A stretch of DNA of 64,000 nucleotides from Candidatus Omnitrophota bacterium (GTDB taxonomy: Bacteria > Omnitrophota > Gorgyraeia > Zapsychrales > JANLHA01): the NCBI GenBank assembly GCA_022711395.1, contig JAKLFA010000002.1, positions 67,864 through 131,863 on the forward strand, in the 5' to 3' direction. Below are positions 129 through 41,598 of the stretch, piece by piece; positions within the stretch are counted from its first letter, which is position 1; each line of letters begins with the position of its first letter. Both the position numbers and the translations under genes were made by a program. The notes under the pieces are model-generated. The model ran no database searches, had not been told where the DNA came from, and worked only from the letters and a program-made list of their open reading frames with translations.

Positions 129-941
129 ATGAAAAAGGTCCTCGTAACATTAGCGATCGTGTTGTTTGCAGCTGGCAGCGCGAACGCTATGCCGATGATC
201 CTGGATCCGGGTTCTATCGCGGGTCTTGGTGTCACAGGCCAGACGGGCGTATTTGACCAACTTGGCATTTACGTCCAGACCACATCAACCGATTATGTTA
301 GCGGTTCTTTCGGTGATGTTGGTGATCTAGCTGTTCAGTCACTGATCGGGGCAGGCCCGGTTGTGACAAGAGGGTTAAACACGCCTGATGCAGCCACGCC
401 ATGGTATCTTGTCGGCGGCTGGTCAAATCTTTCCGGTTATCAAGGCGCTCTTCCTGGAACGTTTGTTTATACGTCAGGGACGCTTGATCTGTATGTCAAC
501 AATACCGGATATGCATTTGGCCCGACCGTTGCTGCAGGTGATGGTTCTGGATTTACTGGTACGAAAGTTGCGACATTGTCGCTGCTTTATGGTACCGGTG
601 CTTTAGTTCCAGACTCAAGCCCTGATGGTTTTGGCGGGACTGTGGATCTGACCTGGGAATTCACTTGGTTACAGAATGGTTTCTGGTTAGATGCTAATGG
701 CAATCCGATCATTCTGGCTAACTTGAGCCAGGGTGAGAGATTATTCGCTATCGCTGATGCGAATACGGATCGTGTTGCTTTTGGCGCCGGAGACGGCCAG
801 GTTGTTTCTCGGTATATTTATTCAGATCATAATGGATCTGTCACGATCGGTGTTGTTCCGGAGCCTACAAGCATGGTCTTGTTCGGAACAGGCCTTTTCG
901 GCTTAGCCGGTGCAGGTCTTCGTAAGAAAATTTTGGGATAA
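129..941 (+). CDS. PEP-CTERM sorting-domain secreted protein (exosortase substrate)
   Basis: ATG at 129 preceded by ggaagga RBS; the track ORF begins at an upstream TTG at 111. N-terminal signal peptide KKVLVTLAIVLFAAGSANA. Gly/Thr-rich body. C-terminus VPEPTSMVLFGTGLFGLAGAGLRKK is a canonical PEP motif + TM helix + basic tail. Confidence 0.7.
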   Translation: MKKVLVTLAIVLFAAGSANAMPMILDPGSIAGLGVTGQTGVFDQLGIYVQTTSTDYVSGSFGDVGDLAVQSLIGAGPVVTRGLNTPDAATPWYLVGGWSNLSGYQGALPGTFVYTSGTLDLYVNNTGYAFGPTVAAGDGSGFTGTKVATLSLLYGTGALVPDSSPDGFGGTVDLTWEFTWLQNGFWLDANGNPIILANLSQGERLFAIADANTDRVAFGAGDGQVVSRYIYSDHNGSVTIGVVPEPTSMVLFGTGLFGLAGAGLRKKILG

Positions 942-971
942 TTTTTATCTCAAAATTCTTTATACACAAAA

Positions 972-1005
972 AAGCATTCCCCTTCGGGGGAATGCTTTTT
1001 TGTTT
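972..1005 (+). terminator. Rho-independent terminator
   Basis: aagcattcccc-ttcg-ggggaatgctt perfect hairpin followed by a T-tract (ttttttgtttt), directly after the PEP-CTERM gene. Confidence 0.6.
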
Positions 1006-1047
1006 TCTCTCCTTGCCCTTTATTAGTATTTCTATTAATATATTTCT

Positions 1048-3375
1048 ATGACTTTTTTTCACCGTTTCATAAGTTCCGTTTTGCGTCATCCGTATCGCAC
1101 TCTTGCAGTTACGCTCATTTTTCTTGCCGTGTCGTTGGCCCTTTTTCCGCAGATCCGCATTGATGACAGCCTGGATGTTTTTTTTGATAAACACAGCCGG
1201 CATTTCATTGATTTCGAGGCCTGGAAAGAACAGTTCGGAAGCGATGAGCTGGTCATTGTGGGCCTGGCGACCGATGAGGTCTTCACTGTTGACAATTTAA
1301 ATTTGATCAAAACGCTTACGGAACAGTTTGAATCCCTGGAAGCGGTGGAGGACGTGACCAGCCTTTCAACGGTCAATCACGCTGTTGGAATGGGAGAGGA
1401 TTTTATTGTGGAACGCCTGATGGAAGGGCTTCCGCAAACGCCGCAGGAGATGGCGAGCCTTCGTCAGGAGGCGCTCGGAAACCCCTTGTATGTCCAGAAC
1501 GTCATTTCCAAAGACGGGAAAGTCGCCGCCCTGATCCTTGAGCTGGAATACGGGCTTGAGGGCGGTGCTCATAAAAAGAAGGTGATGGAAGGTGTCCAAA
1601 AGATCCTTAAAGCTGCGGCCCCTTCGGATGTGAGGTATTATGTCAGCGGGCTTACGGCGATCGAATATTATTACACCAAATATATGCAGGAAGACCTGAA
1701 ATCCTTCGGGCCGTTTATGTTCTTGATGGTGGCGTTCATCGTTTATTTAACGTTCCGGAAATGGCGGCTGGTCATTCTGCCGCTGTCGGCGATCCTGGCC
1801 AGCCTGGTCATGACCATGTCGCTGCTGGTCCTTTTCAAATTTTCGATCAATAATGTGACCACGATCATCCCGCCGATTCTTTTGGCCATCATGGTGGCCG
1901 ACAGCATCCACGTGATCGGCGAAGGGGTCGCGCGCAAACGCGCGATCAGGGACGGTTCAGAAAACGACAGCGTGTTTTTTGAAGAAACCATCCGTCATCT
2001 GCTGTTTCCGTGTTTTTTGACCAGCATCACGACCGCGGTAGGGTTTTGGTCTTTGACGATGAGCCGCATCCCGCCGGTCAAAGAGCTGGGGCTGGTCGTG
2101 GGGATCGGGGTGGCGTTCGCGTATCTTCTTACGTTCACATTTATGCCGGCGCTGGCCGTGGCGACCCGGGCCTTTAAAGGGGTCGGCCCGGAATCCGGCG
2201 AAAAAAAGATCAAGGGTTTTGACCGGCTCTTTGACCGTTTCCTTGAGGGGTTGGCGATTTTTAACGAACGTTTTGCCCGCTGGATCATTGTGGGCAGCGT
2301 GGTCTTGGTGGCCGTGTCCGTTTGGGGGATCAGCCGGCTGCGGGCGGAGACCAGCATTATTGAGGCGTTCCAAAAAAAGAGCGACATTTACCGTTCGACA
2401 GAATTTCTGGAAGACCATTTAAGCGGTGTTCATCCTTTGAATATTTCGCTGAAGGCGAAATCACCCGACGCCTTTTTGCATCCTGAAATGCTTAAGCGCA
2501 TTGAAGCCTTGAGCGCCTTTCTATACAGCATTGAGGAGGTGGACAAGGTCTCCTCGGTCAACGATTATTTGAAGGACATCAATCAATCGTTCCACAATGA
2601 GGATCCGGTGTTTTATGCATTGCCGGACACCAAAGAGATGGCGGCGCAGTATGTCCTTCTTTACGGAAGGGAAGACCTGGAGGATTTTGTGGATGAACAG
2701 TGGCAGTGGGCCACGGTGCGTGTGCGTCTAAAGGAACACAGCAGCGTGAAGCTTGAGCATGTGATCAAAAAGATCGATGAATATGTCCAAGAAAATTTTG
2801 CTGACCTTGAGGAGCGGAACACTTTAGGCCAAACGGTCCTGGAAGTGGACACGAATAACAGCGTGACCTTGGGCCAGGTCCAAAGCCTGGGAATGGCGAT
2901 GGCGGTGATCTTCGGGATGATGTTCTTGGTGTTCCGGTCCGTGCCGGTCGGGGTCGTGAGCATGGTCCCTAATATCCTGCCGATCCTTTTAAATTTCGGG
3001 ATCATGGGGATCTTTAACATCCGCCTGGATTCAGCCACCTCCATGATCGCGGCCATCGGCATCGGGATCGTGGTGGATGACACGATCCACTTTCTGCACG
3101 GGTTCGGTGAATTTTTAAGTGGGCATGGGGATTATACCAGGGCCATGCATGAGACGCTTAAGACGAGGGGCCGGCCGATCATTTTTACTTCGGTGGTCCT
3201 GTTCTTCGGGTTCGGGGTGGTGGGATTTTCGAAATTCATGCTCACGGCGTATTTCGGGATCCTGACGGCGCTTTTGATGTTCACAGCGCTGCTGGCGGAC
3301 CTGATGCTGACGCCGAGCCTTTTGATCGTGTTCAAACCCCCGTTTTGGAAGGGAGGGGATAAAGAAAATGACTGA
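1048..3375 (+). CDS. MMPL/RND-superfamily membrane transporter (sterol-sensing-domain type, HpnN-like lipid exporter)
   Basis: 775 aa with two 5-6 TM blocks separated by large soluble loops. MMPL-like motifs around the TM blocks (e.g. ...ADSIHVIGEG...; ...GIVVDDTIHFLHGF...). Confidence 0.75.
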   Translation: MTFFHRFISSVLRHPYRTLAVTLIFLAVSLALFPQIRIDDSLDVFFDKHSRHFIDFEAWKEQFGSDELVIVGLATDEVFTVDNLNLIKTLTEQFESLEAVEDVTSLSTVNHAVGMGEDFIVERLMEGLPQTPQEMASLRQEALGNPLYVQNVISKDGKVAALILELEYGLEGGAHKKKVMEGVQKILKAAAPSDVRYYVSGLTAIEYYYTKYMQEDLKSFGPFMFLMVAFIVYLTFRKWRLVILPLSAILASLVMTMSLLVLFKFSINNVTTIIPPILLAIMVADSIHVIGEGVARKRAIRDGSENDSVFFEETIRHLLFPCFLTSITTAVGFWSLTMSRIPPVKELGLVVGIGVAFAYLLTFTFMPALAVATRAFKGVGPESGEKKIKGFDRLFDRFLEGLAIFNERFARWIIVGSVVLVAVSVWGISRLRAETSIIEAFQKKSDIYRSTEFLEDHLSGVHPLNISLKAKSPDAFLHPEMLKRIEALSAFLYSIEEVDKVSSVNDYLKDINQSFHNEDPVFYALPDTKEMAAQYVLLYGREDLEDFVDEQWQWATVRVRLKEHSSVKLEHVIKKIDEYVQENFADLEERNTLGQTVLEVDTNNSVTLGQVQSLGMAMAVIFGMMFLVFRSVPVGVVSMVPNILPILLNFGIMGIFNIRLDSATSMIAAIGIGIVVDDTIHFLHGFGEFLSGHGDYTRAMHETLKTRGRPIIFTSVVLFFGFGVVGFSKFMLTAYFGILTALLMFTALLADLMLTPSLLIVFKPPFWKGGDKEND

Positions 3376-4282
3376 TCGTCAGCAATATCTTCATAACGAA
3401 GGTCTTTTTTATAAGAAGGCGTTTGAGCGCAATATCGGGATCCTGACCGAGGCGGAGCAGGAGAAACTGCGTCAGGCGCGCGTGGCCGTCGTGGGCTGCG
3501 GCGGCGTGGGAGGGGTGCATATCCTTAATGCGGTGCGCCTGGGCGTCGGGAATTTGAACATTGCCGATATGGACGTCTTTGATGTGGTCAACATTCAGCG
3601 CCAGTGCGGCGCGTATTTAGACACCATAGGCCGCAATAAGGCTGAGGTGCTGTGCGCGAGCGCGATGGCCGTCAATCCTTATGTGAAGGTCAAGACGTTT
3701 ATTGATGGGGTGTATGATGAGACCGTGGATGAGTTTTTGGAAGGGGTCGATCTGTTCATTGACGGCATTGATTTCTTTTGCATTGACATGAGGCGCCAGC
3801 TTTTTATGAGGGCCTATGAACTTGGGATCCCGGCGGTGACGGCCGGGCCGATCGGTTTCGGCAGTGCGCTTTTGGTGTTCATGCCCGGCGGGATGAGCTT
3901 TGACGAGTATTTTGATATCAGGGATGAGATGTCCTATGAGGAGAGGATGATCGCCTTCGCCGTGGGGCTCGCGCCGGCATCCGTTCATTTGAAATACATG
4001 AATCTGAAAAAGGTCGATGTCGCCAAGAAGACCGGGCCGGCGTTGGTCTCATCCTGCGGGCTGGCCAGCGCGCTGGTGATGACAGAGGTTCTTCGCATCC
4101 TTTTGCGCCGTCCGGGATTAAGGCCCGTGCCGCATTATCTGCAGCTGGACCCGTATCTTTCCGCCTACAAGTCCGGATATCTTTGGCTGGGGAATAAAAA
4201 TCCTGTTCAGCGTTTGAAACGGACGATCGTCAAGCGCATGCTGAAAAGGGAACACCGACATCACGGAGAAAGCCATGAATAA
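3368..4282 (+). CDS. ThiF/MoeB/HesA-family E1-like adenylyltransferase
   Basis: Rossmann motif VAVVGCGGVGGVHILNAVRLGVGNLNIADMDVFDVVNIQRQ. 304 aa. Overlaps the upstream MMPL gene by 8 nt (translational coupling). Confidence 0.7.
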   Translation: MTDRQQYLHNEGLFYKKAFERNIGILTEAEQEKLRQARVAVVGCGGVGGVHILNAVRLGVGNLNIADMDVFDVVNIQRQCGAYLDTIGRNKAEVLCASAMAVNPYVKVKTFIDGVYDETVDEFLEGVDLFIDGIDFFCIDMRRQLFMRAYELGIPAVTAGPIGFGSALLVFMPGGMSFDEYFDIRDEMSYEERMIAFAVGLAPASVHLKYMNLKKVDVAKKTGPALVSSCGLASALVMTEVLRILLRRPGLRPVPHYLQLDPYLSAYKSGYLWLGNKNPVQRLKRTIVKRMLKREHRHHGESHE

Positions 4283-5042
4283 ACGATATCTGTGCGTGCT
4301 GGCAATGGTATGGATGGTGTGCGCTGATGTTTCGGCGCAGACTTTGAGCGGGCCGGAGCTTGCGCAAATGATCTATGACCGGCCCGACGGGATGGACCGT
4401 TCCATGAACGTGGACATGGTCCTGGTGGACAAGAAGGGTAATGAGCGGCCGCGCACGCTGGTGCTGTTCGCCAGGGATGAGGGTCCGCTGGCCAAAACGT
4501 ATCTGGAGTTTTTGACGCCGGAGGATATCAAGGCCACGAAATTCCTTTCCATGGAACAGGCCCAGGGTGATGATATCCAGTATCTTTACCTTCCGGCGCT
4601 GGGAAGGGCCAGACGCATCGTGAGCAGCCAGAAAAATCTGCGTTTTGTGAACACGGATTATACCTATGAGGATATGCAAAGGCGCAAGCCTTCCGAGGAT
4701 GAACACCAGATCCTCCGTGAAGAAATTTATAACGGCCGGCCGTGTTACGTGCTTGAAAGTGTTCCGGTCTCCGCGAATTCACAGTATGGCCGCCGGGTAA
4801 GCTGGGTGGACAAGTTCAGCCTGGTGGCGCTGCATACGGACTTTTATGATAAAAAGGGGCGTTTGGTCAAAGTCTTTGAGGTCCTTTCCATGAAAGTGGT
4901 GGATGGGTTTTGGACGGTCATCAAGAGCCGGATGGAAGATCTTGAAGAGGCGCATCAGACGTTGATGACCGTGACGGAAGTCCGTTACGACCAGGGGATC
5001 GAGGGCGCAAAATTTGAGCTGCGCGCGCTGGAACAGCGATAG
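4275..5042 (+). CDS. LolA-like outer-membrane lipoprotein-sorting family protein (periplasmic lipid carrier partner of MMPL transporters)
   Basis: Signal peptide MNKRYLCVLAMVWMVCADVSAQ. About 230-aa mature beta-rich protein. Gene position directly downstream of MMPL, where LolA-like (PF17131-type) partners are typically found. Overlaps ThiF by 8 nt. Confidence 0.45.
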   Translation: MNKRYLCVLAMVWMVCADVSAQTLSGPELAQMIYDRPDGMDRSMNVDMVLVDKKGNERPRTLVLFARDEGPLAKTYLEFLTPEDIKATKFLSMEQAQGDDIQYLYLPALGRARRIVSSQKNLRFVNTDYTYEDMQRRKPSEDEHQILREEIYNGRPCYVLESVPVSANSQYGRRVSWVDKFSLVALHTDFYDKKGRLVKVFEVLSMKVVDGFWTVIKSRMEDLEEAHQTLMTVTEVRYDQGIEGAKFELRALEQR

Positions 5043-5067
5043 GCGTGAAGGCTAAAGGGGATGGAAC

Positions 5068-6495
5068 ATGGGGAAGGGGGCGAGAAGGATGAAAAACAGG
5101 ACGGGCGTGGTGCTGGTTTTGACATTTGCCTTCAGCGTGTGCGCGGCTTTGGCTCAGGCGGCGGTCTGGCCGGACCTGGTGGAAGTGGAGTGGACCCCTT
5201 CGGTGGAGGTGTGGTCCCTGAACTATGTTGAAGCGGTCGAAAACAATGATTATGAGGACGCTGCCGCCACGGACAGCTGGGTCCGCGCGTTCAACGAATT
5301 CTGGATCGAAGAACATGACCTGTTCATCAAGGCCGACGGGCAGTGGCGTTATAACGCCTGGAACGGCGGGCTTGAGAATGAAAGCCATGGGGAAGCGTCG
5401 TTCCGCGAGGTCTACGGGGAACTGCGCAAAGAGCATTACCGTTTTTCCGCCGGGGACCAGATCCTGACCTGGGGGAAAATGGATGACATCACGATCCTGG
5501 ACCGCGTCAATCCTCAGGATTACCGTCATTTCGTTCTCTATGATAAGCAGGAAAGAAAGGACCCCGTCCTGATGATGCGCCATGAATATTTCGGGGACGG
5601 TTACGGCTTTGAAACGGTTTATAAGCCGTATTTTGAGGCTTCTAAGGTGGATTATTTCGGGCGGAATTTTGCCGCCTTCGGGCATTTGAAGGAAGTGGTG
5701 GACTTAGGCGGCTACAGCGCGCTCCAGAAGTCGACGGTGCAGGGGATCGGGATCCGGGACGAGGACCGGGCTACGGAGCACAGCCTTGAGAACGGCGAGC
5801 TCGCGCTGCGTTATCGCGGCCATCTGAATGACGTGGATTACGGGCTGTATTATATGAACCAGCGCAATTCCATTCCGGTCCTGAGAGAATCATCGCCGGT
5901 CGGAAACACCGTAAAAGCTTTTTTGTATGACCCGACCCTGGCAACGCTGGACACGCTGGTTTCAGCGTCTCCCACCAGTGAGGACCTGGCGCTTACGGCC
6001 GCGCATCCGAGGGTCCAGACCGTGGGCGCGGACTGGGAAACGGTCCTGGGTGAATATGGCGTGCGGGGGGAGATGGCCGTGATGATGGGGATGCCGTTTT
6101 TGAACGAGGATTATTCTTATACCGAAAAGGACACGGTCATGGTCGGTGTAGGCGTCGACCATACTTTCGAGAACAGCGTTTACGCGGACCTTCAGTATGT
6201 TCAGCAGTATATTTTCGCCTATGATAAGCTTTACGCGCAGGAGGAGGCGCCGTTTTTTATCGCGGGGACGGTGAGCCGGGATTTCGCCCGCGGCAAGTTC
6301 AATGCCGGCCTGGACTGGACCTGGAACGCCTCTTACGGGGATTGGATGTTCAATCCTGAGCTGCTTTATAAGCCGTGGGACAGCCTTCATATTGCCGTCG
6401 GAAGTTTCATTTTTGAGGAGGGCAGCGCCAGCACGCTGTTCGGCCGCTATGACACGGGCGATATTATTTATGTGAGTTTGAAGGGAGTCTTTTAA
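5068..6495 (+). CDS. Putative outer-membrane beta-barrel protein
   Basis: Signal peptide ...VLVLTFAFSVCAALAQA. Alternating amphipathic, aromatic-rich strands. C-terminal ...YVSLKGVF ends in Phe, as in OM barrel sorting signals. Confidence 0.4.
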   Translation: MGKGARRMKNRTGVVLVLTFAFSVCAALAQAAVWPDLVEVEWTPSVEVWSLNYVEAVENNDYEDAAATDSWVRAFNEFWIEEHDLFIKADGQWRYNAWNGGLENESHGEASFREVYGELRKEHYRFSAGDQILTWGKMDDITILDRVNPQDYRHFVLYDKQERKDPVLMMRHEYFGDGYGFETVYKPYFEASKVDYFGRNFAAFGHLKEVVDLGGYSALQKSTVQGIGIRDEDRATEHSLENGELALRYRGHLNDVDYGLYYMNQRNSIPVLRESSPVGNTVKAFLYDPTLATLDTLVSASPTSEDLALTAAHPRVQTVGADWETVLGEYGVRGEMAVMMGMPFLNEDYSYTEKDTVMVGVGVDHTFENSVYADLQYVQQYIFAYDKLYAQEEAPFFIAGTVSRDFARGKFNAGLDWTWNASYGDWMFNPELLYKPWDSLHIAVGSFIFEEGSASTLFGRYDTGDIIYVSLKGVF

Positions 6496-6587
6496 AGGGC
6501 CGACGGGCGGCGTTAATGTCTTTGACAAGAGTTCAAATCAACGCCATAATGAGTCATTCTGAAACGGTGTGAACCGGGAGAGATGCC

Positions 6588-7028
6588 ATGGGATCTCAGC
6601 ACTTAGAGCGATTACGACAGGTCATTTCAAGCGATCAGCGCCGCTGTGAACGCATAGAGCTTCCGTTGAAGATGCTGTATGCGTCCCAGCCTGGCCATGG
6701 AGGCCAACTGGATTGGAAGGGGCCGGTATTGCTGGATAATATCGGCGGGGAAGGGATCGGATTTAATTCCAAGGACCTGATACAGGAAAATGAGGAGCTT
6801 TTGATCCGGATGTATCTGCCGGATGATGACTTGCCGGCGGTCTTTATCGGCAAGGTGGTCTGGGCGAAAGAGGACCCGTCTGCCAAGCGCTGCGGCTGCC
6901 GGGAATATTCTTACGGGATCCATATTGAAAAATATGATCCGCAGACTGAGGCCAGGTTCATGGGGTTCATGTCCGATCAAATTCTGGGAAAATACCTTGA
7001 TGAGTCAGGGGATCTAAAGGACATTTAA
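6588..7028 (+). CDS. PilZ-domain (c-di-GMP-binding) protein
   Basis: RRCERIEL (RxxxR) followed by DNIGGEGIGF (D/NxSxxG-like), the two PilZ signature motifs. Confidence 0.55.
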   Translation: MGSQHLERLRQVISSDQRRCERIELPLKMLYASQPGHGGQLDWKGPVLLDNIGGEGIGFNSKDLIQENEELLIRMYLPDDDLPAVFIGKVVWAKEDPSAKRCGCREYSYGIHIEKYDPQTEARFMGFMSDQILGKYLDESGDLKDI

Positions 7029-7034
7029 GGACAA

Positions 7035-7880
7035 ATGAATATGATGTTAGAACATGCCGGCATGCGCTCGATATTCAGCGGGATCGAATACCGTGTTGCG
7101 CGCAGCAGAGATGAATTGGCCCAGGCCTTTCATCTGGTCTATGAAGAATATCTGAAACAGGGCTACATTCATGAACATCCGTCGAAAATGCGGCTGTCTT
7201 TGCATAATCTGGTTCCTGAAACAACGACATTCATCGCCAAAGTGGATTCAACGGTTGTAGCGACGGCGACAGTCATCCCGGATTCGCCGCTGGGCTTGCC
7301 GATGGACGAGCTTTATCGGGAGGAACTCGCCGGTTTGCGCGACTCAGGAGAGAGGCTTTGCGAGGTTTCCATGCTCGCGCACAGCAGCGATCTTCTCAGT
7401 GACAAGGTCCCGTTGATGTTCAACGCCAAAAAGATGTTCCTGATCTTTTTCCTGTTCAAGCACGTCTTTGACTACGCGGTGCAGGAAGAAGCGCTGGATT
7501 ATATCTGTATCACGGTCAATCCGAAGCACTCGGCGATCTATGATTCGCTTTTGTTCAAGAACCTGGATGACCAGGTCAAGTATTACGGGAAGGTCAACGG
7601 CGCTCCGGCGATCGCCAAGGTCCTGAACCTTTCAACGATCGAGCAGGAATCCGCTCTGTCCAAACGGCATAATATGCACAAAATGTTCTTCAGCGGCAGG
7701 ACCGATCCCCGCCGTTTTGATGAAAAGTTCCGTTTCGGTATCGATGATATCAAATATTTTTTTGTGGACCAGGTCAACGCATTTGAAAACGCCAGTAAAG
7801 ATGAGGTCCGGTATATCATGGACGCATATCCCGAATATGATCTGAGCGGGATCATTCCCTTGCACATGATAAGGCCGTGA
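7035..7880 (+). CDS. N-acyl amino acid synthase-like GNAT acyltransferase (FeeM/OlsB-like; PEP-CTERM-system-associated acyltransferase family)
   Basis: 281 aa. N-terminal AQAFHLVYEEYLKQGYIHEHP...TTTFIAKVDSTVVATATVIP matches the autoinducer-synthase-like GNAT pattern of N-acyl amino acid synthases. 7 nt downstream of PilZ and 31 nt upstream of the ligase fusion. Confidence 0.5.
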   Translation: MNMMLEHAGMRSIFSGIEYRVARSRDELAQAFHLVYEEYLKQGYIHEHPSKMRLSLHNLVPETTTFIAKVDSTVVATATVIPDSPLGLPMDELYREELAGLRDSGERLCEVSMLAHSSDLLSDKVPLMFNAKKMFLIFFLFKHVFDYAVQEEALDYICITVNPKHSAIYDSLLFKNLDDQVKYYGKVNGAPAIAKVLNLSTIEQESALSKRHNMHKMFFSGRTDPRRFDEKFRFGIDDIKYFFVDQVNAFENASKDEVRYIMDAYPEYDLSGIIPLHMIRP

Positions 7881-7911
7881 CGGCGTCTTAACCGTTGATT
7901 TCAGAAAGCAC

Positions 7912-10908
7912 ATGCTGCATTCATCTCAACAGATCTTTGAGGTTTTCCGCGACGGGGCGCAAAAGGCGGGTGAGAAGGACGCGCTGTTATACAAGCAGAA
8001 GGCCCATTATGAGTCGATCAGCTATATCGCCCTCCTGAGGCAGGCGGCCGCCTTTGCCCGTGTTCTGCATAACCATCAGATCTCTCCCGGCGACAAGGTT
8101 GCGCTGGTCCTTGAGAACAGGCCGGAGTTCGCCGGTGCCGTGATGGCGGTCTGGGCTTGCGGGGCGGTGGCGGTCCCGTTGGACGTCCAATATTCCACCC
8201 TTGAGATCAAAACGCTTTTGAAACATTCTCAGGCCAGGCTGGTGGTCTCTCAGCAGCGGCTTTTCCATCTTCATGAGGAATTGCGTTCGATCTGCCCTTG
8301 GCTGACCGTGGATGACCCGGATCTGAAATATCATTTGCGCGAAGCTGCGGGGTCCGCCCGGGCGGTCGAGTTGGAGCATTCTCCGGCGGTTGACCTGGCG
8401 GCGTTGTTCTACACGTCAGGGACGACGGGAGAGCCCAAGGCGGTCATGCTCAGCCACGCGAATATCCTTTCGAATGTGAGGGCGTTCCATCAGCTTGAGA
8501 TCGCTTCTTCCAAAGACGTGGTCGTTTCGGTCCTGCCGTTGCATCACACCTACGCGTTTACGACGACACTGTTATATCCGCTTTTGATCGGGGCCACGGT
8601 CAGTTATCCAAAGAGCATCGCTTCCGTGGACCTTTTGTCCTGCATCAGGGAGACGTGCGCCACGGTCTTTGTCGGAGTGCCGCAGATCTTCAAGCATATG
8701 CATAAGGCCGTGGTCGACCGTATTGGAGGGATGAAGGCCCTGAAGCGTTCGATGGTGCTTGCCGCCGGAGAGCTTTGCATGAATTCCCGCAAGGTCCTGG
8801 GGGCCAATCCCGGGCGGGTTCTTTTTTCGCAGATCCACCATCAATTCGGGCCGTCGTTGCGCCTGATGGTCTCCGGCGGGGCGAAGCTGGACCCGGAGAT
8901 TTCCAGGGATTTTTATCGCTGGGGATTTTCTTTGATCGAGGGTTATGGCCTTACGGAGACATCACCGGTCGTTTCTTTTTCACTGCCCAATCAGGCGAAG
9001 TTCGGTTCCGTCGGAAGGGTGATCCCGGGAGTCGGGGTGGATATCAAGGACCCTGACGCGGCCGGTATCGGTGAGGTCCTGGTCAAAGGCCCTAATGTGA
9101 TGATGGGTTATTACAGGAACCAGGCCGAGACGGACCGGGTCCTTTATGACGGATGGTTCCATACGGGGGACCTGGGATATATCGACCGGGATGGATTTCT
9201 TTTTTTGACCGGCCGCAGCAAAGAGATCTTGGTCTTGGAGAACGGGGAGAACATCAATCCGGAGGAGCTGGAAAATTATTATGGCCAGAATCCCTTTATC
9301 AAGGAGATCGCGGTCCTTTCTTTTAAGGCTGAGCGTTCCTCGGGGGTCACGGCCGAAAAGCTTGTGGCGTTGATCGTCGCTGACCAGGACCATTTTTTGG
9401 CCCAGAAGGAAACGAATATCAAGGCCAGGATCAAATGGGAACTTGAGAACATGTGCGTGCACATGCCCAGTTATAAGAGGGTGACCGGATTTGAGGTTTC
9501 GCAGGAAGAGCTGCCCCGCACCAGGCTGGGGAAATTACGGCGTTTTGAGCTGCCCGAGATCTATGCCCGCCTTCGTGAGCGGTCGCAGGTCAAACAAAGG
9601 GTGCAGATCGTCGAGCCGGTGGAGGGGCGTTCTGAGCTGTTTGATCAGGCGCTGGGTTATCTCGAGGACGCGGTGGGCCGCCCCGTGGGCCTTAAGGAGC
9701 ATTTGGAACTGGACGTCGGGCTGGACTCGTTGGGCCGCATGGAGCTTTTGCTGGGGCTTCAGGAAAAGCTGGGTTTGAGCCTGACAGAGGAACAGTCGAT
9801 GCAGTTCTTTGTTTGCGTGACGGTCGAAGATCTTTTGGATAAGTTGAGGGAATTTTCAGCGTCGCTGCCCAGCGGGATCGCGGTGGATGAGGATGCCAAG
9901 ATCCTGAGCGGACTTTCGGCCGGCAGGGAGAATTTCGCGGTGGTGGCTGAGCGAGCGAAGTCCTTTTTGCGAGAGGCCCTGAACCGTGAATCGATCCAGG
10001 AGTCCGATCATTTGGAGCTGGACCTGGGGCTTGATTCGCTGGGGCGGATGGAAGTCCTTTTGAGCCTTCAGGAGCGTCTGGGGTTGACCATGTCGGATGA
10101 GCAGGCGGTGGGATTTTTCATGGCTTCGACGGTCGCGGAACTTCTTGAGAACCTTAAAAAAGAATTGCCCCGGATGCAGGAGGGCTCCGGCGCAAAGGCG
10201 TTCATGTGGTCGGATATCTTAAGACAGGATCCCGACGCTGACAAACTTAAGCGCATCAACACGGGGGACTTCAGCCTGCCCGCCCGTTTGTTCAATGTCG
10301 CGGGATGGTGTTTTTTCCGCGCCTTTTTTAAGTTGTTCTACCGGTTGAAGGTGGAGGGTCTTGAGAACGCAAACACCGAGGGTCCGTTCTTGATCTGTTC
10401 GAATCACACGACCTATTTTGATGCGTTGATTATTTTAAGCGCGTTGCCGTTCCGGAAATTTTTGCAGGTGTTCTTTTTGGGGGACAGCAAGTTCCTTAAC
10501 CATCCCGTGCTTCGTCCGTTCGGCCGGGCCGCCAGATTTATTCCGATCGAATTCACGCATAACATGGTGGAGGCGTTAAAGGTCTGCGCGTATGTCTTGC
10601 GGAATCAAAAAATCGTTTGTTACTTTCCGGAAGGGCAGCGGTCGATCGATGGGGAGGTGAAGGAATTCCGCAAAGGGGTGGGGGTCCTTGTTAAAGAGTT
10701 GGGAGTGCCGGTCCTGCCGGCGTTTATCAGCGGGGCTTTTGAATGCTGGCCACGCGGGCAGCGGTTTCCCAAATTGTTTGGCAACGTCACGTTGCGTTTT
10801 GGTAAAATGACCTCTTCAAAAGAGCTTCTTTTCCGGGTTTTTGACGCGGAGGATGATTATGAGCAAACCGCTGAGAACTTACGGATCCGCGTCTCATCTT
10901 TGAAGTAA
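7912..10908 (+). CDS. Multidomain fusion: fatty-acid AMP-ligase (acyl-ACP synthetase-like) - ACP - ACP - 1-acyl-glycerol-3-phosphate/lyso-lipid acyltransferase (PlsC/OlsA family)
   Basis: Adenylation motifs YTSGTTGEPKAV, GYGLTET, GWFHTGDLGY. Two phosphopantetheine sites LELDVGLDSLGRMELL (~nt 9715) and LELDLGLDSLGRMEVL (~nt 10020). C-terminal acyltransferase motifs CSNHTTYFD (HX4D) and FPEGQRS. Confidence 0.8.
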   Translation: MLHSSQQIFEVFRDGAQKAGEKDALLYKQKAHYESISYIALLRQAAAFARVLHNHQISPGDKVALVLENRPEFAGAVMAVWACGAVAVPLDVQYSTLEIKTLLKHSQARLVVSQQRLFHLHEELRSICPWLTVDDPDLKYHLREAAGSARAVELEHSPAVDLAALFYTSGTTGEPKAVMLSHANILSNVRAFHQLEIASSKDVVVSVLPLHHTYAFTTTLLYPLLIGATVSYPKSIASVDLLSCIRETCATVFVGVPQIFKHMHKAVVDRIGGMKALKRSMVLAAGELCMNSRKVLGANPGRVLFSQIHHQFGPSLRLMVSGGAKLDPEISRDFYRWGFSLIEGYGLTETSPVVSFSLPNQAKFGSVGRVIPGVGVDIKDPDAAGIGEVLVKGPNVMMGYYRNQAETDRVLYDGWFHTGDLGYIDRDGFLFLTGRSKEILVLENGENINPEELENYYGQNPFIKEIAVLSFKAERSSGVTAEKLVALIVADQDHFLAQKETNIKARIKWELENMCVHMPSYKRVTGFEVSQEELPRTRLGKLRRFELPEIYARLRERSQVKQRVQIVEPVEGRSELFDQALGYLEDAVGRPVGLKEHLELDVGLDSLGRMELLLGLQEKLGLSLTEEQSMQFFVCVTVEDLLDKLREFSASLPSGIAVDEDAKILSGLSAGRENFAVVAERAKSFLREALNRESIQESDHLELDLGLDSLGRMEVLLSLQERLGLTMSDEQAVGFFMASTVAELLENLKKELPRMQEGSGAKAFMWSDILRQDPDADKLKRINTGDFSLPARLFNVAGWCFFRAFFKLFYRLKVEGLENANTEGPFLICSNHTTYFDALIILSALPFRKFLQVFFLGDSKFLNHPVLRPFGRAARFIPIEFTHNMVEALKVCAYVLRNQKIVCYFPEGQRSIDGEVKEFRKGVGVLVKELGVPVLPAFISGAFECWPRGQRFPKLFGNVTLRFGKMTSSKELLFRVFDAEDDYEQTAENLRIRVSSLK

Positions 10909-10955
10909 CTTTTTGCGGCCCAATCAGTTACAAAAATTAAATCCTGTATTTCCGA

Positions 10956-10983
10956 TTGACACCCATATATTTAACATTATAAT
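10956..10983 (+). promoter_or_regulatory. Putative sigma-70-type promoter
   Basis: TTGACA (10956-61), 16-nt spacer, TATAAT (10978-83) in an AT-rich gap upstream of the 11020 gene. Confidence 0.3.
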
Positions 10984-11019
10984 AATACTAATTATATATT
11001 ATTAAAACGAGGGGGAGAT

Positions 11020-11874
11020 ATGATCTTAAAGCGCGGTTTTTCTGTGATGCGGTCCTCTGTAGTGACGTTGATCCAAAATCCCGGTATTCTGTATCCATAT
11101 GCGATCGTAGGGATCCTTCAGTTGTTCATTCTTGAGATCCTTTTTTTCATGCCCCGGTATCCGCTTATTCAGATCTTTGGGCCGATGATCCTGGCGCTTA
11201 AGAAGTCGCCATTTTTCTTGCATTACCCCTTTAATTTTGAAGTGGTGAACAGTTGGTTCCAGTCCCTGCAGGTGCCCTTCTATGTTTTTGTGCAGATCCT
11301 TTTTGTGGCCAAGGCTGTTCTGATCGTTCAAAAGACCGAACAGCGTCAGGCGGTGGAATCAATGCCGAAGGTCGCTTTTGGAAAATATGTGAATCTTGTG
11401 GTGGGGGCGGCGATCATTATCGGGCTGATGTATGCGTTCAATTACGGCTATTCGTTCTTGATCCGCAGGGCTGTTCAGATCCGTTCGACGTCGGGCCTTT
11501 ACTTTTTGATCAAGCAGGCCGTGATCCTGGGTGGGCCGTATATCAATTTGATGGTCTCGGCTTTTATCACGGCGTGCTTCGCTTATGTGATCCCGCTCAT
11601 CGCGATCGAAGGGGACAATGTCTTCAAGGCGGTTTTTCGGAATTTCAAATTGCTTAAAGGCGATTTTTTTGTCTTACTGGCTTTTTTGACGGTCGCGGCA
11701 TTGTGCTTTGTGCCGTTCCTTCTGGTGAAAACGAATGAGATCGCGATCCGTTCGATGATGACGCCTGAAGGCTGGCAGATGATCACGATCTTGGGCGCGG
11801 GGCTGATCCTTTTGATCGACGCTCTGCAGTATACAGGAATAACGATTGTATATCTCAAAAAGGATAGATCATGA
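11020..11874 (+). CDS. Polytopic membrane protein, unknown function
   Basis: 284 aa with about 7 hydrophobic helices. No recognisable catalytic motif. Confidence 0.5.
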   Translation: MILKRGFSVMRSSVVTLIQNPGILYPYAIVGILQLFILEILFFMPRYPLIQIFGPMILALKKSPFFLHYPFNFEVVNSWFQSLQVPFYVFVQILFVAKAVLIVQKTEQRQAVESMPKVAFGKYVNLVVGAAIIIGLMYAFNYGYSFLIRRAVQIRSTSGLYFLIKQAVILGGPYINLMVSAFITACFAYVIPLIAIEGDNVFKAVFRNFKLLKGDFFVLLAFLTVAALCFVPFLLVKTNEIAIRSMMTPEGWQMITILGAGLILLIDALQYTGITIVYLKKDRS

Positions 11875-12779
11875 AAAAAACACTCCTCGTTCTGGTCGGT
11901 CTGTTGGTTGCGGTCTATGTCGTCCTGACGTTGGTGGATACCAAATCAGAATATCTGCTGGAGAAAAAGCTTTGGCGGATCCAGAAAGATTTTGTGGCGA
12001 TCGCGCAGGACCCGAAAGCTGCGCCGGATAATCAGTATAAAGAAGCGATCGCCAAATACAGGGCGCTGATCCAGAAATACCCTAAGGCACGGCTGACGCC
12101 TCAGATGTATTTTCAGATCGGCCGTCTTGAAGAGATGCGGAAGAATTTTGACGGGGCGCGGGCGGTCTTTAAGGAGGCTTCGGAGGCGTTTAAGGATAAT
12201 TCATCGATCGTTTCAGACGCGATGTATCGGGTTGGACTTTCTTTCGAACAGGAGGGAAAGATCAATGATGCGATCGCGATCTACCGGGAGATCGGACGGG
12301 TATTTTCACGGACGCAGATCGGGTTTTCGATGCCGATCTATATTGCCAGTATTTATCGACGTTTAGGGGACCCGGTCAAGCAGAATCAGGCGCTTGCTGA
12401 GGCGGAAACGTTTTATCGGGCGATCCTTTCCGAGACGGAAGATGGATCAGCCTCTCAACTGGAGGTTTTGCGGGCCTTAACGACCGCTTTGCTGGGGCAG
12501 CAAAAATGGGGTGAGGCGTATCAAACTCTTGAGAGAACGTTGTTTTCTTTCGCCAGGTCCAAGCATTTGAGGCCGCAGGCTGCTGGAGGGATCGTTCGGA
12601 CCTTGAGCGTTGTGGGGGCTGGGCAACTGAATGACATGCCCAGGGTAATGAAGACCCTGGAAACTTTCAAGGAGCAGAATCCGGGCCATCCGCTGAACGC
12701 CTATCTTGAGCAGATCAAAGCGTCTCTTCAACAGATGAAGCAGGAAGAAAAGAAGGCGGCGGTCGTCGGGAATGAATAA
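11871..12779 (+). CDS. Membrane-anchored TPR-like repeat protein
   Basis: N-terminal TM LLVLVGLLVAVYVVLTLV, then helical-repeat (TPR-like) sequence. Start overlaps the previous gene by 4 nt and the end overlaps the kinase gene by 8 nt. Confidence 0.5.
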   Translation: MKKTLLVLVGLLVAVYVVLTLVDTKSEYLLEKKLWRIQKDFVAIAQDPKAAPDNQYKEAIAKYRALIQKYPKARLTPQMYFQIGRLEEMRKNFDGARAVFKEASEAFKDNSSIVSDAMYRVGLSFEQEGKINDAIAIYREIGRVFSRTQIGFSMPIYIASIYRRLGDPVKQNQALAEAETFYRAILSETEDGSASQLEVLRALTTALLGQQKWGEAYQTLERTLFSFARSKHLRPQAAGGIVRTLSVVGAGQLNDMPRVMKTLETFKEQNPGHPLNAYLEQIKASLQQMKQEEKKAAVVGNE

Positions 12780-14085
12780 AGGGATGAGCCAGGATCATAT
12801 TCAGCAACTGACCGAGTCGGATCTGTTCAAGCAGGTCAGTGATATCTGCGCTGTGGTCAATACGGTCACCGATGTTCAACAGCTTCTGGAAGTGTCTTTA
12901 TCACGCACGCTTAGATTGTTTGGGGCCCGTCGGGGGTCTGTGTTCATCATGGATGAGAACACGAAATGCCTGCTTTTGAAAGCGGCTGAAGGCCTGCAGC
13001 AGACCGAGGTCAATCAGATGATGAAGCGCATCGGTGAGGGCGTGGTGGGTCGGGTCGCCGAGCAGAAGATCCCGATCGTGGTTGAGAATATTGAGACGGA
13101 TGAACGCTTTGTGAACTATCGAGCCCGCAAAAGTTATCAAACGCCGTCTTTTATTTGTGCGCCGCTGCTCATTAAGGACCATCTGATTGGAGTGATCAAT
13201 ATCACCGATAAATTGAGCGGGGCGGGTTTCGGAAGGGCGGATCTTCAGCTTCTGGATTTTTTGGCGATGCAGATCGCTTTGAATTACCGGCGTATTGAGC
13301 TGTATGAACGGTTCCGGTCGATCCTCAAACGCTCAGAAGAGCTCAAAAACGAGCTTGGCAAAAGCAGTCAGGAAACGACGAAATTGCGCCGGCAGATCAT
13401 CGCTCATGAGCGGCTTGCCACCGTGGGAAAAATGGCTGGCGGGATCGCCCATGAGTTCAACAATCCGCTGGATGGTGTTTTAAGGTATACCAACCTGTGT
13501 TTAAAACAGGTCGGCGATGATGAGGTGATCCGCAGTTATCTTTTGGAGATCAAGAACGGTTTGAACCGGATGACGACCATTGTCCGGAATTTGCTGGCGT
13601 GCTCCCGGCGCTCCGAAAAACCCCTGCAGATGATTCGGCCGGATGTGGTGGTCGACCAGGCGATCCAGGCGGTGCAGTCCGAAGCGCAGCATAAAAACGT
13701 TCGTATTGAGAAGGAAGTCGGGCCCGGCTTGCCGGATTTGAAAGACCTGGGATTGGAAAGCATTTTGGTGAATCTTTTGCGCAACGCTGTCGATGCCCTT
13801 AAACCAGGCGGGCTTGTTAAGATCTCTGCGGTTCATTTAGAGCACAACGGGCATGTTGTTTTTCAAGTGGCGGACAATGGACCGGGCATTCCGGATTCGG
13901 AAGATCCGAGCAAAATTTTTGAGCCGTTCTATACGACTAAGGATATGGAGAAGGGTTGCGGTCTGGGTTTGACCATTGTTTCCGAGATCGTTAAGAGCTA
14001 TCAGGGGCAGATCCAGGTTGAGAGCGCTCCCGGAGAGGGCGCGACATTTATTGTTACTATTCCGATTGAAACGAGGGACCTATGA
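12772..14085 (+). CDS. Soluble GAF-domain sensor histidine kinase
   Basis: GAF region with ...GRVAEQKIPIVVENIETDERF.... HisKA H-box IAHEFNNPL. HATPase N/G boxes NLLRNAVDAL and DNGPGIP...GLGLTIV. Confidence 0.75.
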   Translation: MNKGMSQDHIQQLTESDLFKQVSDICAVVNTVTDVQQLLEVSLSRTLRLFGARRGSVFIMDENTKCLLLKAAEGLQQTEVNQMMKRIGEGVVGRVAEQKIPIVVENIETDERFVNYRARKSYQTPSFICAPLLIKDHLIGVINITDKLSGAGFGRADLQLLDFLAMQIALNYRRIELYERFRSILKRSEELKNELGKSSQETTKLRRQIIAHERLATVGKMAGGIAHEFNNPLDGVLRYTNLCLKQVGDDEVIRSYLLEIKNGLNRMTTIVRNLLACSRRSEKPLQMIRPDVVVDQAIQAVQSEAQHKNVRIEKEVGPGLPDLKDLGLESILVNLLRNAVDALKPGGLVKISAVHLEHNGHVVFQVADNGPGIPDSEDPSKIFEPFYTTKDMEKGCGLGLTIVSEIVKSYQGQIQVESAPGEGATFIVTIPIETRDL

Positions 14086-15485
14086 AGTCGATTGACAAGC
14101 GCAACTATGATATTTTGATCGTTGATGATGAACCGTTGATCCGCCAGTCGCTTTTTGAGATCTTACGGATCGAGGGGTATCACGCTCATATGTCGCAGAG
14201 TGCGGAAGAAGCCTTGAATTTTTTAGCGGAGCAAAAGGTCGATATTGTCCTTACTGACATGAAATTGCCGCAAAAGAGCGGCCTGGAACTTTTGGAAGAG
14301 GTCAAGAAGATCACCCCGGATACGGAAGTCATTCTGATCACGGGGTTTGGTTCGATCGAGTCAGCCGTTGAGGCGATCCGCAAGGGCGCCTATGATTATA
14401 TTTGCAAGCCGATCAATGATGAAGAGATCAAATCCCGTATTCAGAAGATCATTGAACATAAAGAGATCGTTGCTGAGAACCTGCGGCTGCGCGAAATGCT
14501 GGCCAAGTCCAATCCAACTTCCTGCGGCCAGATGATCGGTTCCAGTGCCAAGATGCAAAAGGTCTATCATGTGATCGAGTCTGTGGCGACTTCGAATGCC
14601 ACGATCCTCATCACGGGGGAAAGCGGGACGGGAAAGGGTTTGGCCGCCCGGGCGATCCATCAGATGGATGAGAACCGCTGTGATAAGCCTTTTGTGGAAG
14701 TCAGCTGCGGGGCGCTTTCAGAAACGCTGCTTGAAAGTGAGCTTTTTGGGCATGTTAAGGGGGCGTTCACGGGGGCTATTCGTGATAAAGAGGGCCGCTT
14801 TGAGTATGCCCGCGGGGGGACGATTTTTTTGGATGAAATTGATGCATTTTCTCCCATGCTTCAGGTCAAACTTTTACGGGTTTTGCAGGATGGGGTCTTT
14901 GAGCGGGTGGGGGATAACGTGACCCGTAAGACGGATGCCAGGATCATTGTAGCGACGAATCGCCCTTTGACGGAACTTGTTGAAAATGGCGAGTTTAGGG
15001 AAGACTTGTATTACCGTATTAATGTGATTTCGATCGTGATGCCGCCTTTGAGGGAGCGGAAAGAGGATCTGGATATTTTGATCAAACATTTTCTTGAGAA
15101 ATATGCTAAGAAAAATGGCAAGAAAATTGCTGGTATATCGGATGAAGTTCGGACCATGTTTTTGAACTATAAATGGCCCGGAAATATCCGGGAACTGGAA
15201 AACGCTGTTGAAGGCGCTGTGATCATGTCCAAAGCGGACGCCATCCAAAAGTGGGATGTTCCCAATTCTTCCAAGTTTGATGAGGCAAAGAAGCGCGTGA
15301 CGGCCATGAAGATCGGCCGTTCGTTAAAGGAGGTCATGGAGCAGCCTGAGCGGGATGTTATTCTGGCGGCTCTGGAACAAAACGCTTGGAACCGCAATAA
15401 AGCGGCATCCGCGTTGGGGGTCAATCGGACGACCTTGTATAACAAGATGAAAAAATATAATATTGAGTTCAAAAAGCCAAAATAA
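14082..15485 (+). CDS. Sigma-54-dependent NtrC-family response regulator (PrsR-like)
   Basis: REC domain ILIVDDEP...[13 protein letters not shown]+ Walker [15 protein letters not shown] sigma-54 contact motif. C-terminal HTH. Overlaps the kinase stop by 4 nt. Confidence 0.85.
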
Positions 15486-16583: not shown

Positions 16584-16612
16584 TTTACAAATGCCCAAAT
16601 AAACCCTATAGT
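16584..16612 (+). promoter_or_regulatory. Putative sigma-70-type promoter
   Basis: TTTACA (16584-89), 17-nt spacer, TATAGT (16607-12), upstream of the DUF134 gene. Confidence 0.3.
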
Positions 16613-33596: not shown

Positions 33597-33622
33597 GACG
33601 GCTCCCTTGCTTCGATTAAATG

Positions 33623-33696
33623 TCGGAGCGGACGGATTTGAACCGTCGACCCCTTGTACCCCATACAAGTGCGCTAGCCAGCTGCGCTACGCTCCG
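33623..33696 (-). tRNA. tRNA-Pro (anticodon GGG)
   Basis: Reverse complement CGGAGCGTAGCGCAGCTGGCTAGCGCACTTGTATGGGGTACAAGGGGTCGACGGTTCAAATCCGTCCGCTCCGA folds as a cloverleaf: 7-bp acceptor, D-arm GCGC/GCGC, anticodon loop AUGGGGU, T-arm GACGG/CCGTC. No encoded CCA. Confidence 0.8.
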
Positions 33697-37657: not shown

Positions 37658-37658
37658 A

Positions 37659-41396: not shown

Positions 41397-41472
<76 letters not shown>

Positions 41473-41482
41473 GCGTGAAATT

Positions 41483-41565: not shown

Positions 41566-41598
41566 TTTTTATTGTATTTGACTGGCGGTATGCTTGAC

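Follow-up and report, generated by a model that had tools for sequence, protein, structure and literature searches.

What would a bacterium make, and for what purpose, with a gene set that joins a synthase of N-acylated amino acids, a fatty acid-activating fusion enzyme, a ThiF-type adenylating enzyme and a LolA-like transport module? This question is raised by positions 1048–10908 of a 64,000-nucleotide stretch of Candidatus Omnitrophota bacterium (assembly GCA_022711395.1, contig JAKLFA010000002.1, positions 67,864 to 131,863), hereafter the window. The original prediction treated these genes as a free-standing lipid locus. We find instead that they are the downstream part of an exosortase locus, with EpsH, EpsI, a sugar transferase and PEP-CTERM genes upstream. 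Our preferred reading, to which we give a probability of roughly 0.55, is that they are the lipid-making and lipid-exporting part of this larger exosortase/PEP-CTERM locus, and that they would produce an acyl-amino-acid lipid from a privately activated fatty acid and export it to the outer membrane for exosortase-dependent assembly.

Exosortase and PEP-CTERM context

The context outside the window was taken from the 516-kb JGI contig Ga0116241_10000030 (locus L087), which bears the exact FeeM-like and the exact PEP-CTERM protein of the window. On this source contig, EpsH, EpsI, an exopolysaccharide (EPS) priming sugar transferase and three PEP-CTERM proteins are encoded directly upstream of the lipid genes and on the same strand. 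EpsH exceeds the cutoffs of TIGR02602 (166.2 bits, cutoff 105.55) and TIGR04178 (70.7, cutoff 23) and stays below the respective cutoff of each named exosortase subtype (XrtA, B, C, D, V, W and others). EpsI scores 108.7 bits with its model (cutoff 42.8), and the sugar transferase 304.9 bits with TIGR03025 (cutoff 295.6). The first gene of the window encodes a protein that exceeds the Pfam PEP-CTERM cutoff (26.2 against 20.7 bits), ends in a canonical VPEP-helix-RKK tail and scores 60.7 bits with the NCBIfam model floc_PepA, below its cutoff; it is a predicted exosortase substrate. Two further PEP-CTERM genes lie to the left of the window (L087 8674–9288 and 9290–9901), the first of which bears a C-type lectin domain. 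The locus thus encodes three consecutive candidate exosortase substrates.

A 119-residue four-helix-bundle protein is encoded between EpsH and EpsI (L087 6020–6379, about 3.5 kb left of the window start). It belongs to TIGR02436, the 23S rRNA intervening-sequence protein family, is distantly Avd-like, and oddly interrupts a gene pair that is otherwise functional.

The same-strand run continues downstream of the lipid genes with a polytopic membrane protein (h284), a TPR protein, a sensor kinase, a sigma-54-dependent regulator and a PocR-GAF protein. No Pfam or NCBIfam model matches h284, which is always paired with the TPR protein encoded next and, by synteny, often adjoins EpsH. Membership of the kinase and the regulator in the PrsK/PrsR pair of XrtA/PEP-CTERM systems was rejected (85.8 against 300 bits and 417.6 against 502.6 bits, respectively); the regulator is PrsR-like.

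Conservation of the gene set

A profile (A1) built from 38 FeeM-like homologues found 4,147 representatives (E ≤ 1e-3) in a set of 1.84 billion cluster representatives and drew 80 loci from species-representative genomes. These loci were searched by tblastn and iterated hidden Markov models of every window protein, plus EpsH and EpsI. They come from five phyla: mostly Omnitrophota, along with Planctomycetota (Brocadiia, Scalindua), Thermodesulfobacteriota, Elusimicrobiota and Rokubacteria/Methylomirabilota. In those of at least 15 kb, the proteins are only about 35–60% identical to their window counterparts.

Counts were made in the 33 loci of at least 15 kb and are lower bounds because flanks were limited to 10 kb. 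PilZ is present in 26 of the 33, a sigma-54 regulator in 20, the LolA-like and DUF1302 proteins together in 18, the ligase-ACP-acyltransferase in 15 (ACP, acyl carrier protein) and ThiF in 14. An exosortase marker occurs within 10 kb in 12/33, and all seven genes are present in 6/33. Such grouping is far above chance. The order EpsH–EpsI–PEP-CTERM–MMPL–ThiF–LolA–DUF1302–PilZ–FeeM–fusion–h284–TPR–kinase–regulator–PocR is collinear in loci L005, L009 and L028 (FeeM identity 45–58%). It is also collinear in L004 (FeeM identity 82%), where it is seen from EpsI onward because this locus begins inside EpsI. Rearranged yet linked versions occur in about 20 further loci, and four phyla besides Omnitrophota have the order in rearranged form. 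The expectation in the original prediction that the neighbourhood would be syntenic across genomes was thereby borne out.

Genes and transcription units

The features of the locus are collected in Table 1. The unbroken same-strand run comprises 13 genes and extends from 129 to 16516; seven forward-strand open reading frames (ORFs), rather than the nine genes first reported, fall within 1048–10908. All domains foreseen for them were recovered by Pfam (MMPL, ThiF, LolA_like, a barrel, PilZ, AMP-binding, two PP-binding and PlsC).

Table 1 Features of the same-strand gene run, with positions in the window
Feature	Coordinates	Strand	Evidence or remark
PEP-CTERM surface protein, PepA-like	129–941	+	Gene-caller start 129; signal peptide; tail VPEPTSMVLFGTGLFGLAGAGLRKKILG
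Intrinsic terminator 3′ of the PEP-CTERM gene	966–1003	+	17-bp stem followed by a T run
MMPL/HAE3-type RND-superfamily inner-membrane transporter, 775 aa	1048–3375	+	Pfam MMPL 124.3 bits; Sterol-sensing; Patched SSD
E1-like (ThiF/MoeB-fold) adenylating enzyme, family NF006077, 304 aa	3368–4282	+	Pfam ThiF 146 bits
LolA-like periplasmic carrier, 255 aa	4275–5042	+	PF17131 192.5 bits; DUF1329 (PF07044) 36.2 bits, cutoff 23.1
DUF1302 outer-membrane beta-barrel, 475 aa	5068–6495	+	PF06980 42.3 bits, cutoff 23.2; alternative start 5089
Sigma-70-like promoter, TTGACA-17-CATAAT, 11/12	6522–6550	+	Consensus match only
Single-domain PilZ protein, putative c-di-GMP receptor, 146 aa	6588–7028	+	PF07238 31 bits, cutoff 22.5
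FeeM-type N-acyltransferase (synthase), 281 aa	7035–7880	+	FeeM PF21926 125 bits; catalytic Glu110 within CEVSML
AMP-ligase/acyl-ACP synthetase-ACP-ACP-PlsC fusion, 998 aa	7912–10908	+	AMP-binding 274 bits; two PP-binding stretches; PF01553 84.3 bits
Sigma-70 promoter, perfect consensus TTGACA-16-TATAAT, ahead of third unit	10956–10983	+	Consensus match only
h284, polytopic membrane protein without known family	11020–11874	+	About 6–7 hydrophobic segments
Membrane-anchored TPR protein, YbgF/CpoB-like	11871–12779	+	TPR families; TIGR02795 55.7 bits, below cutoff
Soluble GAF-HisKA-HATPase sensor kinase	12772–14085	+	PrsK TIGR02916 85.8 bits, cutoff 300
Sigma-54-dependent response regulator, PrsR-like	14082–15485	+	TIGR02915 417.6 bits, cutoff 502.6
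PocR-GAF sensory protein, final gene of the conserved block	15485–16516	+	Synteny

Overlaps of 8 nt, originally described for consecutive genes of the transport operon, do occur at the MMPL/ThiF and ThiF/LolA-like junctions and at these two only. The LolA-like and DUF1302 genes are separated by 25 nt, and the remaining gaps measure 92 nt (DUF1302/PilZ), 6 nt (PilZ/FeeM-like) and 31 nt (FeeM-like/fusion). The proposed division into two modules is supported because the gap between them, which is 92 nt and not 90 bp long, carries an 11/12 sigma-70-like promoter. A perfect sigma-70 consensus promoter is found in the 111-nt gap that follows the 998-residue gene. The promoters in these two gaps, together with the strong terminator after the PEP-CTERM gene, suggest three transcription units (1048–6495, 6588–10908 and 11020–16516).

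A search for sigma-54 promoters (TGGCACG-N4-TTGCW, allowing up to 3 mismatches) found 70 sites where 93 were expected, and the intergenic gaps contained none of them, which lends no support to direct sigma-54 control of the operons. At the Rfam gathering threshold, the window contains four tRNAs only and no riboswitch for cyclic di-GMP (c-di-GMP). Three of the tRNAs form a tRNA-Thr(tgt)/Tyr(gta)/Gly(tcc) cluster at 41397–41672 (+), and the fourth is tRNA-Pro(ggg) at 33622–33696 (−).

A FeeM-type synthase next to a PilZ protein

The gene product of 7035–7880 has a FeeM/LuxI-type GNAT fold with the conserved catalytic glutamate and belongs to this family. The original prediction had expected a match to TIGR03694 or to an OlsB-like GNAT; neither model matched, and FeeM (PF21926) did instead. 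TIGR03694 (cutoff 111.95 bits) gave no match even at E ≤ 10, compared with 275.4 and 207 bits for two control genes of locus L084, and neither PF13444 nor NF052554 (OlsB) matched the protein. The enzyme is thus related to ornithine-lipid synthesis by analogy, not by membership.

In 37 of 74 loci, the FeeM-like gene is directly preceded by a same-strand PilZ gene, and nine of the ten long FeeM-family members tested are PilZ+FeeM fusions. The PilZ protein of the window contains the RxxxR motif (RRCER, residues 18–22). At the position of the (D/N)xSxxG motif it reads NIGGEG, with Gly for Ser, and many FeeM-adjacent homologues read DISGGG or NISGGG. Judged from gene order and the fusions, the synthase is probably gated by c-di-GMP.

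The metagenomic enzymes Nas343 and Nas354 each unite a synthase and PilZ in one fusion protein and yield N-acyltyrosines in E. coli (Thies et al. 2016, PMC4897644), and the E103A mutant of Nas354 loses activity (PMC4897644). As here, their synthase domain is followed by a linker of about 80 residues without known fold. PilZ is C-terminal in Nas354, N-terminal in the fusions found in this work and a separate protein encoded upstream in the window. Furthermore, the Nas343 and Nas354 genes were judged to lie outside any pathway operon (PMC4897644), unlike the window synthase.

An association between synthases and exosortases is credited to Craig et al. 2011 in passages of PMC7293339 and PMC11072679, and an ‘ExoAT’ mutant loses a polysaccharide band (PMC11072679). 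These known exosortase-linked synthases, which are of the TIGR03694 type, likewise have the FeeM/LuxI fold and lie inside an exosortase/PEP-CTERM locus with a sigma-54 two-component system. The window synthase belongs to a different subfamily and has an extra C-terminal extension of about 80 residues. Unlike its TIGR03694-type counterparts, it is accompanied by PilZ, ThiF, the ligase-ACP-ACP-PlsC fusion and the RND/LolA-like/DUF1302 module. TIGR03694-type loci are proteobacterial, whereas the window type is found in Omnitrophota, Planctomycetota and other phyla.

The product of such a synthase could be a signal rather than a structural lipid. An N-acyl amino acid would then act as a diffusible surfactant or signal, akin to acyl-homoserine lactones, that is exported as a means of coordinating the formation of flocs or biofilms and that ThiF may cyclise or activate. 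N-acyltyrosines are indeed surfactants and antibiotics, and PilZ and sigma-54 regulators would suit a biofilm-type switch, but the periplasmic carrier, the dedicated barrel and the second acyltransferase suggest a two-chain lipid retained in the membrane, and no receptor is evident. We regard this explanation as the least probable of those considered here.

The ligase-ACP-ACP-PlsC fusion

The 998-residue protein encoded after the synthase retains the DSL serines of both ACPs (606 and 709) and the motifs of the PlsC family, to which its last domain belongs (NHTTYFD, of the HX4D type, at 830–836 and FPEG at 905). Its architecture is common to at least 120 homologous clusters, mostly from Omnitrophota. 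Aas of E. coli likewise joins an activating domain, a carrier and PlsC in one chain, with PlsC N-terminal, the reverse of the window order; with this reversal and scores of 266.6 bits in three stretches for NF006386 (cutoff 1221) and 221.6 for NF005291 (cutoff 1349), identity with Aas was rejected. The same activating-ACP-AGPAT combination exists in one chain in ElbD, the ether-lipid enzyme of Myxococcus xanthus (reductase, acyl-CoA/ACP synthetase, ACP, AGPAT). ElbD has a FAR1-like reductase domain, whereas the window fusion has two ACPs and, by Pfam, no reductase or NAD-binding family. ElbD-like enzymes without a reductase domain have already been noted (PMC9131029).

N-acylation followed by O-acylation by a PlsC-family enzyme is also the logic of OlsB/OlsA (ornithine lipid) and GlsB/GlsA (glycine lipid). 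In the window, in contrast, the N-acyltransferase is FeeM-type and not PF13444, and the acyl donor would be a private fused ACP. The original prediction read the locus as a self-contained, ornithine-lipid-like (OlsB+OlsA) aminolipid pathway with its own export and no tie to protein sorting. In keeping with this, the N-acyltransferase gene adjoins that of a PlsC O-acyltransferase; moreover, loci L033 and L034 encode a stand-alone PlsC-like protein (205 residues) directly before FeeM, followed by MMPL, LolA, DUF1302 and ThiF, with 14.8 kb free of exosortase genes. We nevertheless consider this pathway improbable: OlsB and PF13444 do not match, exosortase markers are present on the contig of the window and in the 12 long loci counted above, and ThiF and PilZ would have no role.

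A ThiF-type enzyme in exosortase loci

The ThiF-type enzyme exceeds the family cutoff of NF006077 and has an intact nucleotide loop (GxGGxG) and intact adenylation residues. All of the latter, as well as C230, are invariant in 33 ThiF homologues. The CxxC pair of the zinc motif is absent from the sequence, and no ThiS/MoaD-like partner was found among ORFs of at least 80 codons in 129–16516. A predicted model (predicted local distance difference test, 93) matches MoeB (27.2), AclA 9EGB (27.0), PaaA, MccB and TcdA. The C-terminal helix of the enzyme (279–300) is basic.

The gene was originally counted as part of the transport operon. The related loci show a different pattern: ThiF directly follows FeeM in five distant loci (L042, L044, L047, L048 and L081), and NCBIfam NF011425 models a 989-residue FeeM+ThiF protein. 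ThiF homologues of about 52% identity lie beside EpsH, EpsI and PEP-CTERM genes in L085 and L089, where no FeeM-like gene is found within the 10-kb flanks, and a homologue of the same identity lies in L084, an exosortase locus that carries only TIGR03694-type synthases. A published gene table lists UBA/ThiF genes within the PEP-CTERM cluster of Rubrivivax and Thauera. ThiF consistently accompanies the FeeM-like gene and exosortase loci, and is no odd passenger of a transport operon.

Beyond Omnitrophota, a nitroreductase-like gene of about 355 codons comes after ThiF (L084 10881–11960, L089 10894–11952), and L085 and L089 continue with genes for an OmpH/Skp-like chaperone and a PEP-CTERM protein. 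Immediately after its ThiF gene, L085 has a gene (11300–11983) for a 227-residue protein with no Pfam match. NF011424 (679 residues) and NF011425 may be fusions of these ThiF-neighbourhood parts.

The putative envelope transport module

By hydropathy, the MMPL protein crosses the membrane in about 12 helices and has two periplasmic loops, each about 180 residues long. It scores 197 bits with TIGR00921 (HAE3), below cutoff. The LolA-like protein carries a cleavable signal peptide (ending VSA/Q) and, among solved structures, is closest to P. gingivalis LolA3 (9TP6, E = 2.8e-44), a paralogue that does not bind LolB (PMC13103446). The DUF1302 protein has a signal peptide and ends in KGVF, with a terminal Phe; its family is described as an 18-stranded AlgE-like barrel and a predicted DUF1329 binder (PMC13499233).

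In the sister loci L088 and L090, an ATP-binding cassette (ABC) transporter of the MacB/FtsX type, paired with a LolA-like protein and a DUF1302-like barrel, takes the place of MMPL, and the synthase, the fusion enzyme, h284, the TPR protein and the regulators are all kept. RND and MacB/LolCDE-type transporters act outward, the MacB/FtsX type including LolCDE. Export is favoured over uptake because a transporter of this outward type replaces MMPL. The inner-to-outer-membrane export route put forward in the original prediction is the best reading of a module whose extractor is exchanged while the LolA-like carrier and the barrel stay.

The exchanged regions (L088 1–4842, L090 1784–7138) comprise an ABC permease and an ATPase, the LolA-like protein, a barrel shortened to 379–382 residues and an added, unannotated protein of 456–471 residues.

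In the Lol pathway (LolCDE–LolA–LolB), too, a periplasmic LolA-fold carrier links an extractor in the inner membrane to a receptor in the outer membrane. Lol uses the ABC extractor LolCDE and LolB, whereas the window has an RND/MMPL extractor and a beta-barrel receptor, and the sister loci have a MacB/LolCDE-type extractor. DUF1302, DUF1329, BNR-repeat and RND (COG1033) genes are co-fit in Shewanella, Kangiella and Pseudomonas (Price et al., bioRxiv 10.1101/072470), with an envelope component as the proposed cargo. The window contains the same three clustered families (DUF1302, a LolA/LolB-like DUF1329-related protein and a small COG1033-type RND protein), encoded contiguously at 1048–6495. 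No BNR-repeat/Ycf48-like gene was found in 129–16516, and ThiF fills the slot between the RND and LolA-like genes. Unlike the cluster of Price et al., the window module is tied to a lipid-synthesis operon and an exosortase.

A module of this kind could also work inward. The barrel, the LolA-like protein and MMPL would then import exogenous fatty acids or lipids, and the fusion enzyme would re-acylate lysophospholipids in the manner of Aas in a small, host-dependent cell. The fusion is Aas-like in domain content, mutation of DUF1302/DUF1329/RND genes impairs Pseudomonas putida on Tween 20 and butyl stearate, and long alkanes induce a Thalassolituus MMPL/LolA-like protein. Scavenging, however, runs against the outward action of these transporter types, leaves the tight link between the FeeM-type synthase, PilZ, ThiF and exosortase genes unexplained, and is at odds with the score of the fusion, which is far below the Aas cutoff. 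We hold it to be very improbable.

The transport genes could serve the sorted proteins themselves. An amine-bearing lipid (e.g. N-acyl-Lys or N-acyl-Orn, or an N-acyl amino acid joined to an amine by ThiF), made by the synthase, ThiF and the fusion enzyme with c-di-GMP as the switch, would be the exosortase acceptor for cleaved PEP-CTERM proteins, and MMPL (or the ABC transporter of the sister loci), the LolA-like carrier and DUF1302 would form a second, Lol-like route that takes these C-terminally lipidated proteins to the outer membrane. Such anchoring and delivery would fit (i) the position of the genes between the PEP-CTERM substrates and the regulators of the exosortase locus, (ii) the interchangeability of MMPL with a LolCDE/MacB-type extractor, (iii) the lipoprotein acyl chains that LolA-family proteins carry, and (iv) the OmpH/Skp-like chaperones whose genes, in L085 and L089, come after ThiF and adjoin PEP-CTERM genes. 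The acceptor of exosortases is not established (Haft 2023), and the related ArtA and rhombosortase attach proteins to a prenyl lipid and to glycerophosphoethanolamine, respectively, both of which then need a dedicated surface route (Haft 2023). On the other hand, characterised FeeM-type synthases give N-acyl aromatic amino acids without a free amine, ThiF is cytoplasmic while sorting takes place on the external side of the membrane, and PilZ–FeeM pairs occur with no exosortase gene within 10 kb (L001, L023, L029). A literature search gave no report of a lipid adduct on any PEP-CTERM protein. We give this explanation more weight than the other alternatives and still regard it as unlikely.

Proposed mechanism

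Starting from the observed folds, motifs and gene linkage, we infer the lipid product, the ThiF substrate, the direction of transport and the tie to PEP-CTERM anchoring as follows, and we return here to the preferred reading of an exported acyl-amino-acid lipid. The 998-residue enzyme, whose domains and motifs are all in place, would adenylate a free fatty acid and load its own two ACPs. The FeeM-type synthase would then use the acyl-ACP to acylate an amino acid at its alpha-amine, yielding an N-acyl amino acid; its fold and catalytic Glu are seen, and FeeM and the PilZ-fused relative Nas354 point to this activity. The PilZ protein, encoded 6 nt upstream, may bind the synthase and place it under c-di-GMP control, as adjacency and the PilZ+FeeM fusions suggest. 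The PlsC domain could esterify a hydroxyl of the product, or of a lysolipid, with a second acyl chain.

ThiF would adenylate a carboxylate for joining to another group, the simplest candidate being the one left free on the N-acyl amino acid, and the activated group may pass via the invariant Cys230. This step, suggested by the conserved adenylation residues, the gene linkage and the fusion model NF011425, is the weakest of the scheme. MMPL would take the lipid out of the inner membrane, its passage across the periplasm would fall to the LolA-like protein and the DUF1302 barrel would receive it at the outer membrane, a sequence of events to which the roles of these families and the replacement of MMPL by a LolCDE/MacB-type ABC extractor point. 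The pathway would serve exosortase-dependent surface or matrix assembly, and the downstream sigma-54 two-component genes probably help to control it.

Several observations weigh against this model. Its host is uncultured and its product hypothetical. The closest structures to ThiF act on proteins or peptides (MoeB, PaaA, MccB) besides a small carboxylate (TcdA). A FeeM–ThiF fusion is absent among the 5,689 ORFs of the related loci, and each of the 120 best ThiF homologues is a separate protein of about 300 residues, so NF011425 is the sole source for such a fusion. With Gly for Ser in NIGGEG, c-di-GMP binding by the window PilZ is not assured, and no sigma-54 promoter is detectable upstream of the operons. 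The impairment of P. putida DUF1302/DUF1329/RND mutants on fatty esters fits uptake or processing equally. Finally, PilZ–FeeM stands alone in several Scalindua genomes (L001/L011, L023, L029), amid housekeeping genes and with no exosortase, transporter or ThiF gene within 10 kb, which makes PilZ–FeeM the minimal conserved unit.

Relation to published systems and significance

The original prediction held that the composition of the locus was undescribed. As far as a literature search shows, this holds for the full combination, ThiF included, whereas several of its links have already been published separately: synthase with exosortase, synthase with PilZ, the DUF1302/DUF1329/RND cluster and ElbD-like enzymes without a reductase. 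A literature search gave no description of the whole assembly, of ThiF as a consistent partner or of the exchange of MMPL for a LolCDE/MacB-type transporter, and no paper that combines an exosortase with LolA or MMPL or treats ThiF in such a role.

The locus bears on two questions: to which partner exosortases attach their substrates, and why exosortases keep company with synthases, a link reported in 2011. For archaeosortase and rhombosortase the answer to the first is a lipid. The locus brings substrate proteins, lipid synthesis, carboxylate activation, a second-messenger receptor and a carrier route together on one strand and offers a concrete, expressible test of a lipid as the missing link. 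The uncharacterised DUF1302/LolA-like/RND module gains a candidate cargo, and the ThiF family NF006077, named only ‘hypothetical protein’, is marked as a component of exosortase systems. Interest in the locus would rise sharply if the lipid were the anchor of the sorted proteins.

Other genes of the window

Behind the conserved block and a DUF134 gene (placed on the source contig) lies a GT8 glycosyltransferase gene (17203–18390, +), with a 10/12 sigma-70-like promoter at 16584–16612. Two membrane glycosyltransferases of the PMT_2 (ArnT-like) family and a methyltransferase–GT2 fusion are encoded at 35553–36962 (+), 37551–39005 (+) and 38998–40428 (−), which points to further modification of envelope glycans or lipids about 20 kb from the locus. 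Proteins of 616 (19467–21317, −) and 267 residues (21809–22612, −), both without a Pfam family, are encoded between a cyclophilin gene and nadC. At 54877–58976 (−), a fused trehalose-6-phosphate synthase/phosphatase gene (GT20 and Trehalose_PPase, 777 residues) adjoins a GH15 trehalase-like gene, forming a make-and-break pair, and a 1,135-residue protein of PBS-lyase HEAT-like repeats is encoded at 60472–63879 (−).

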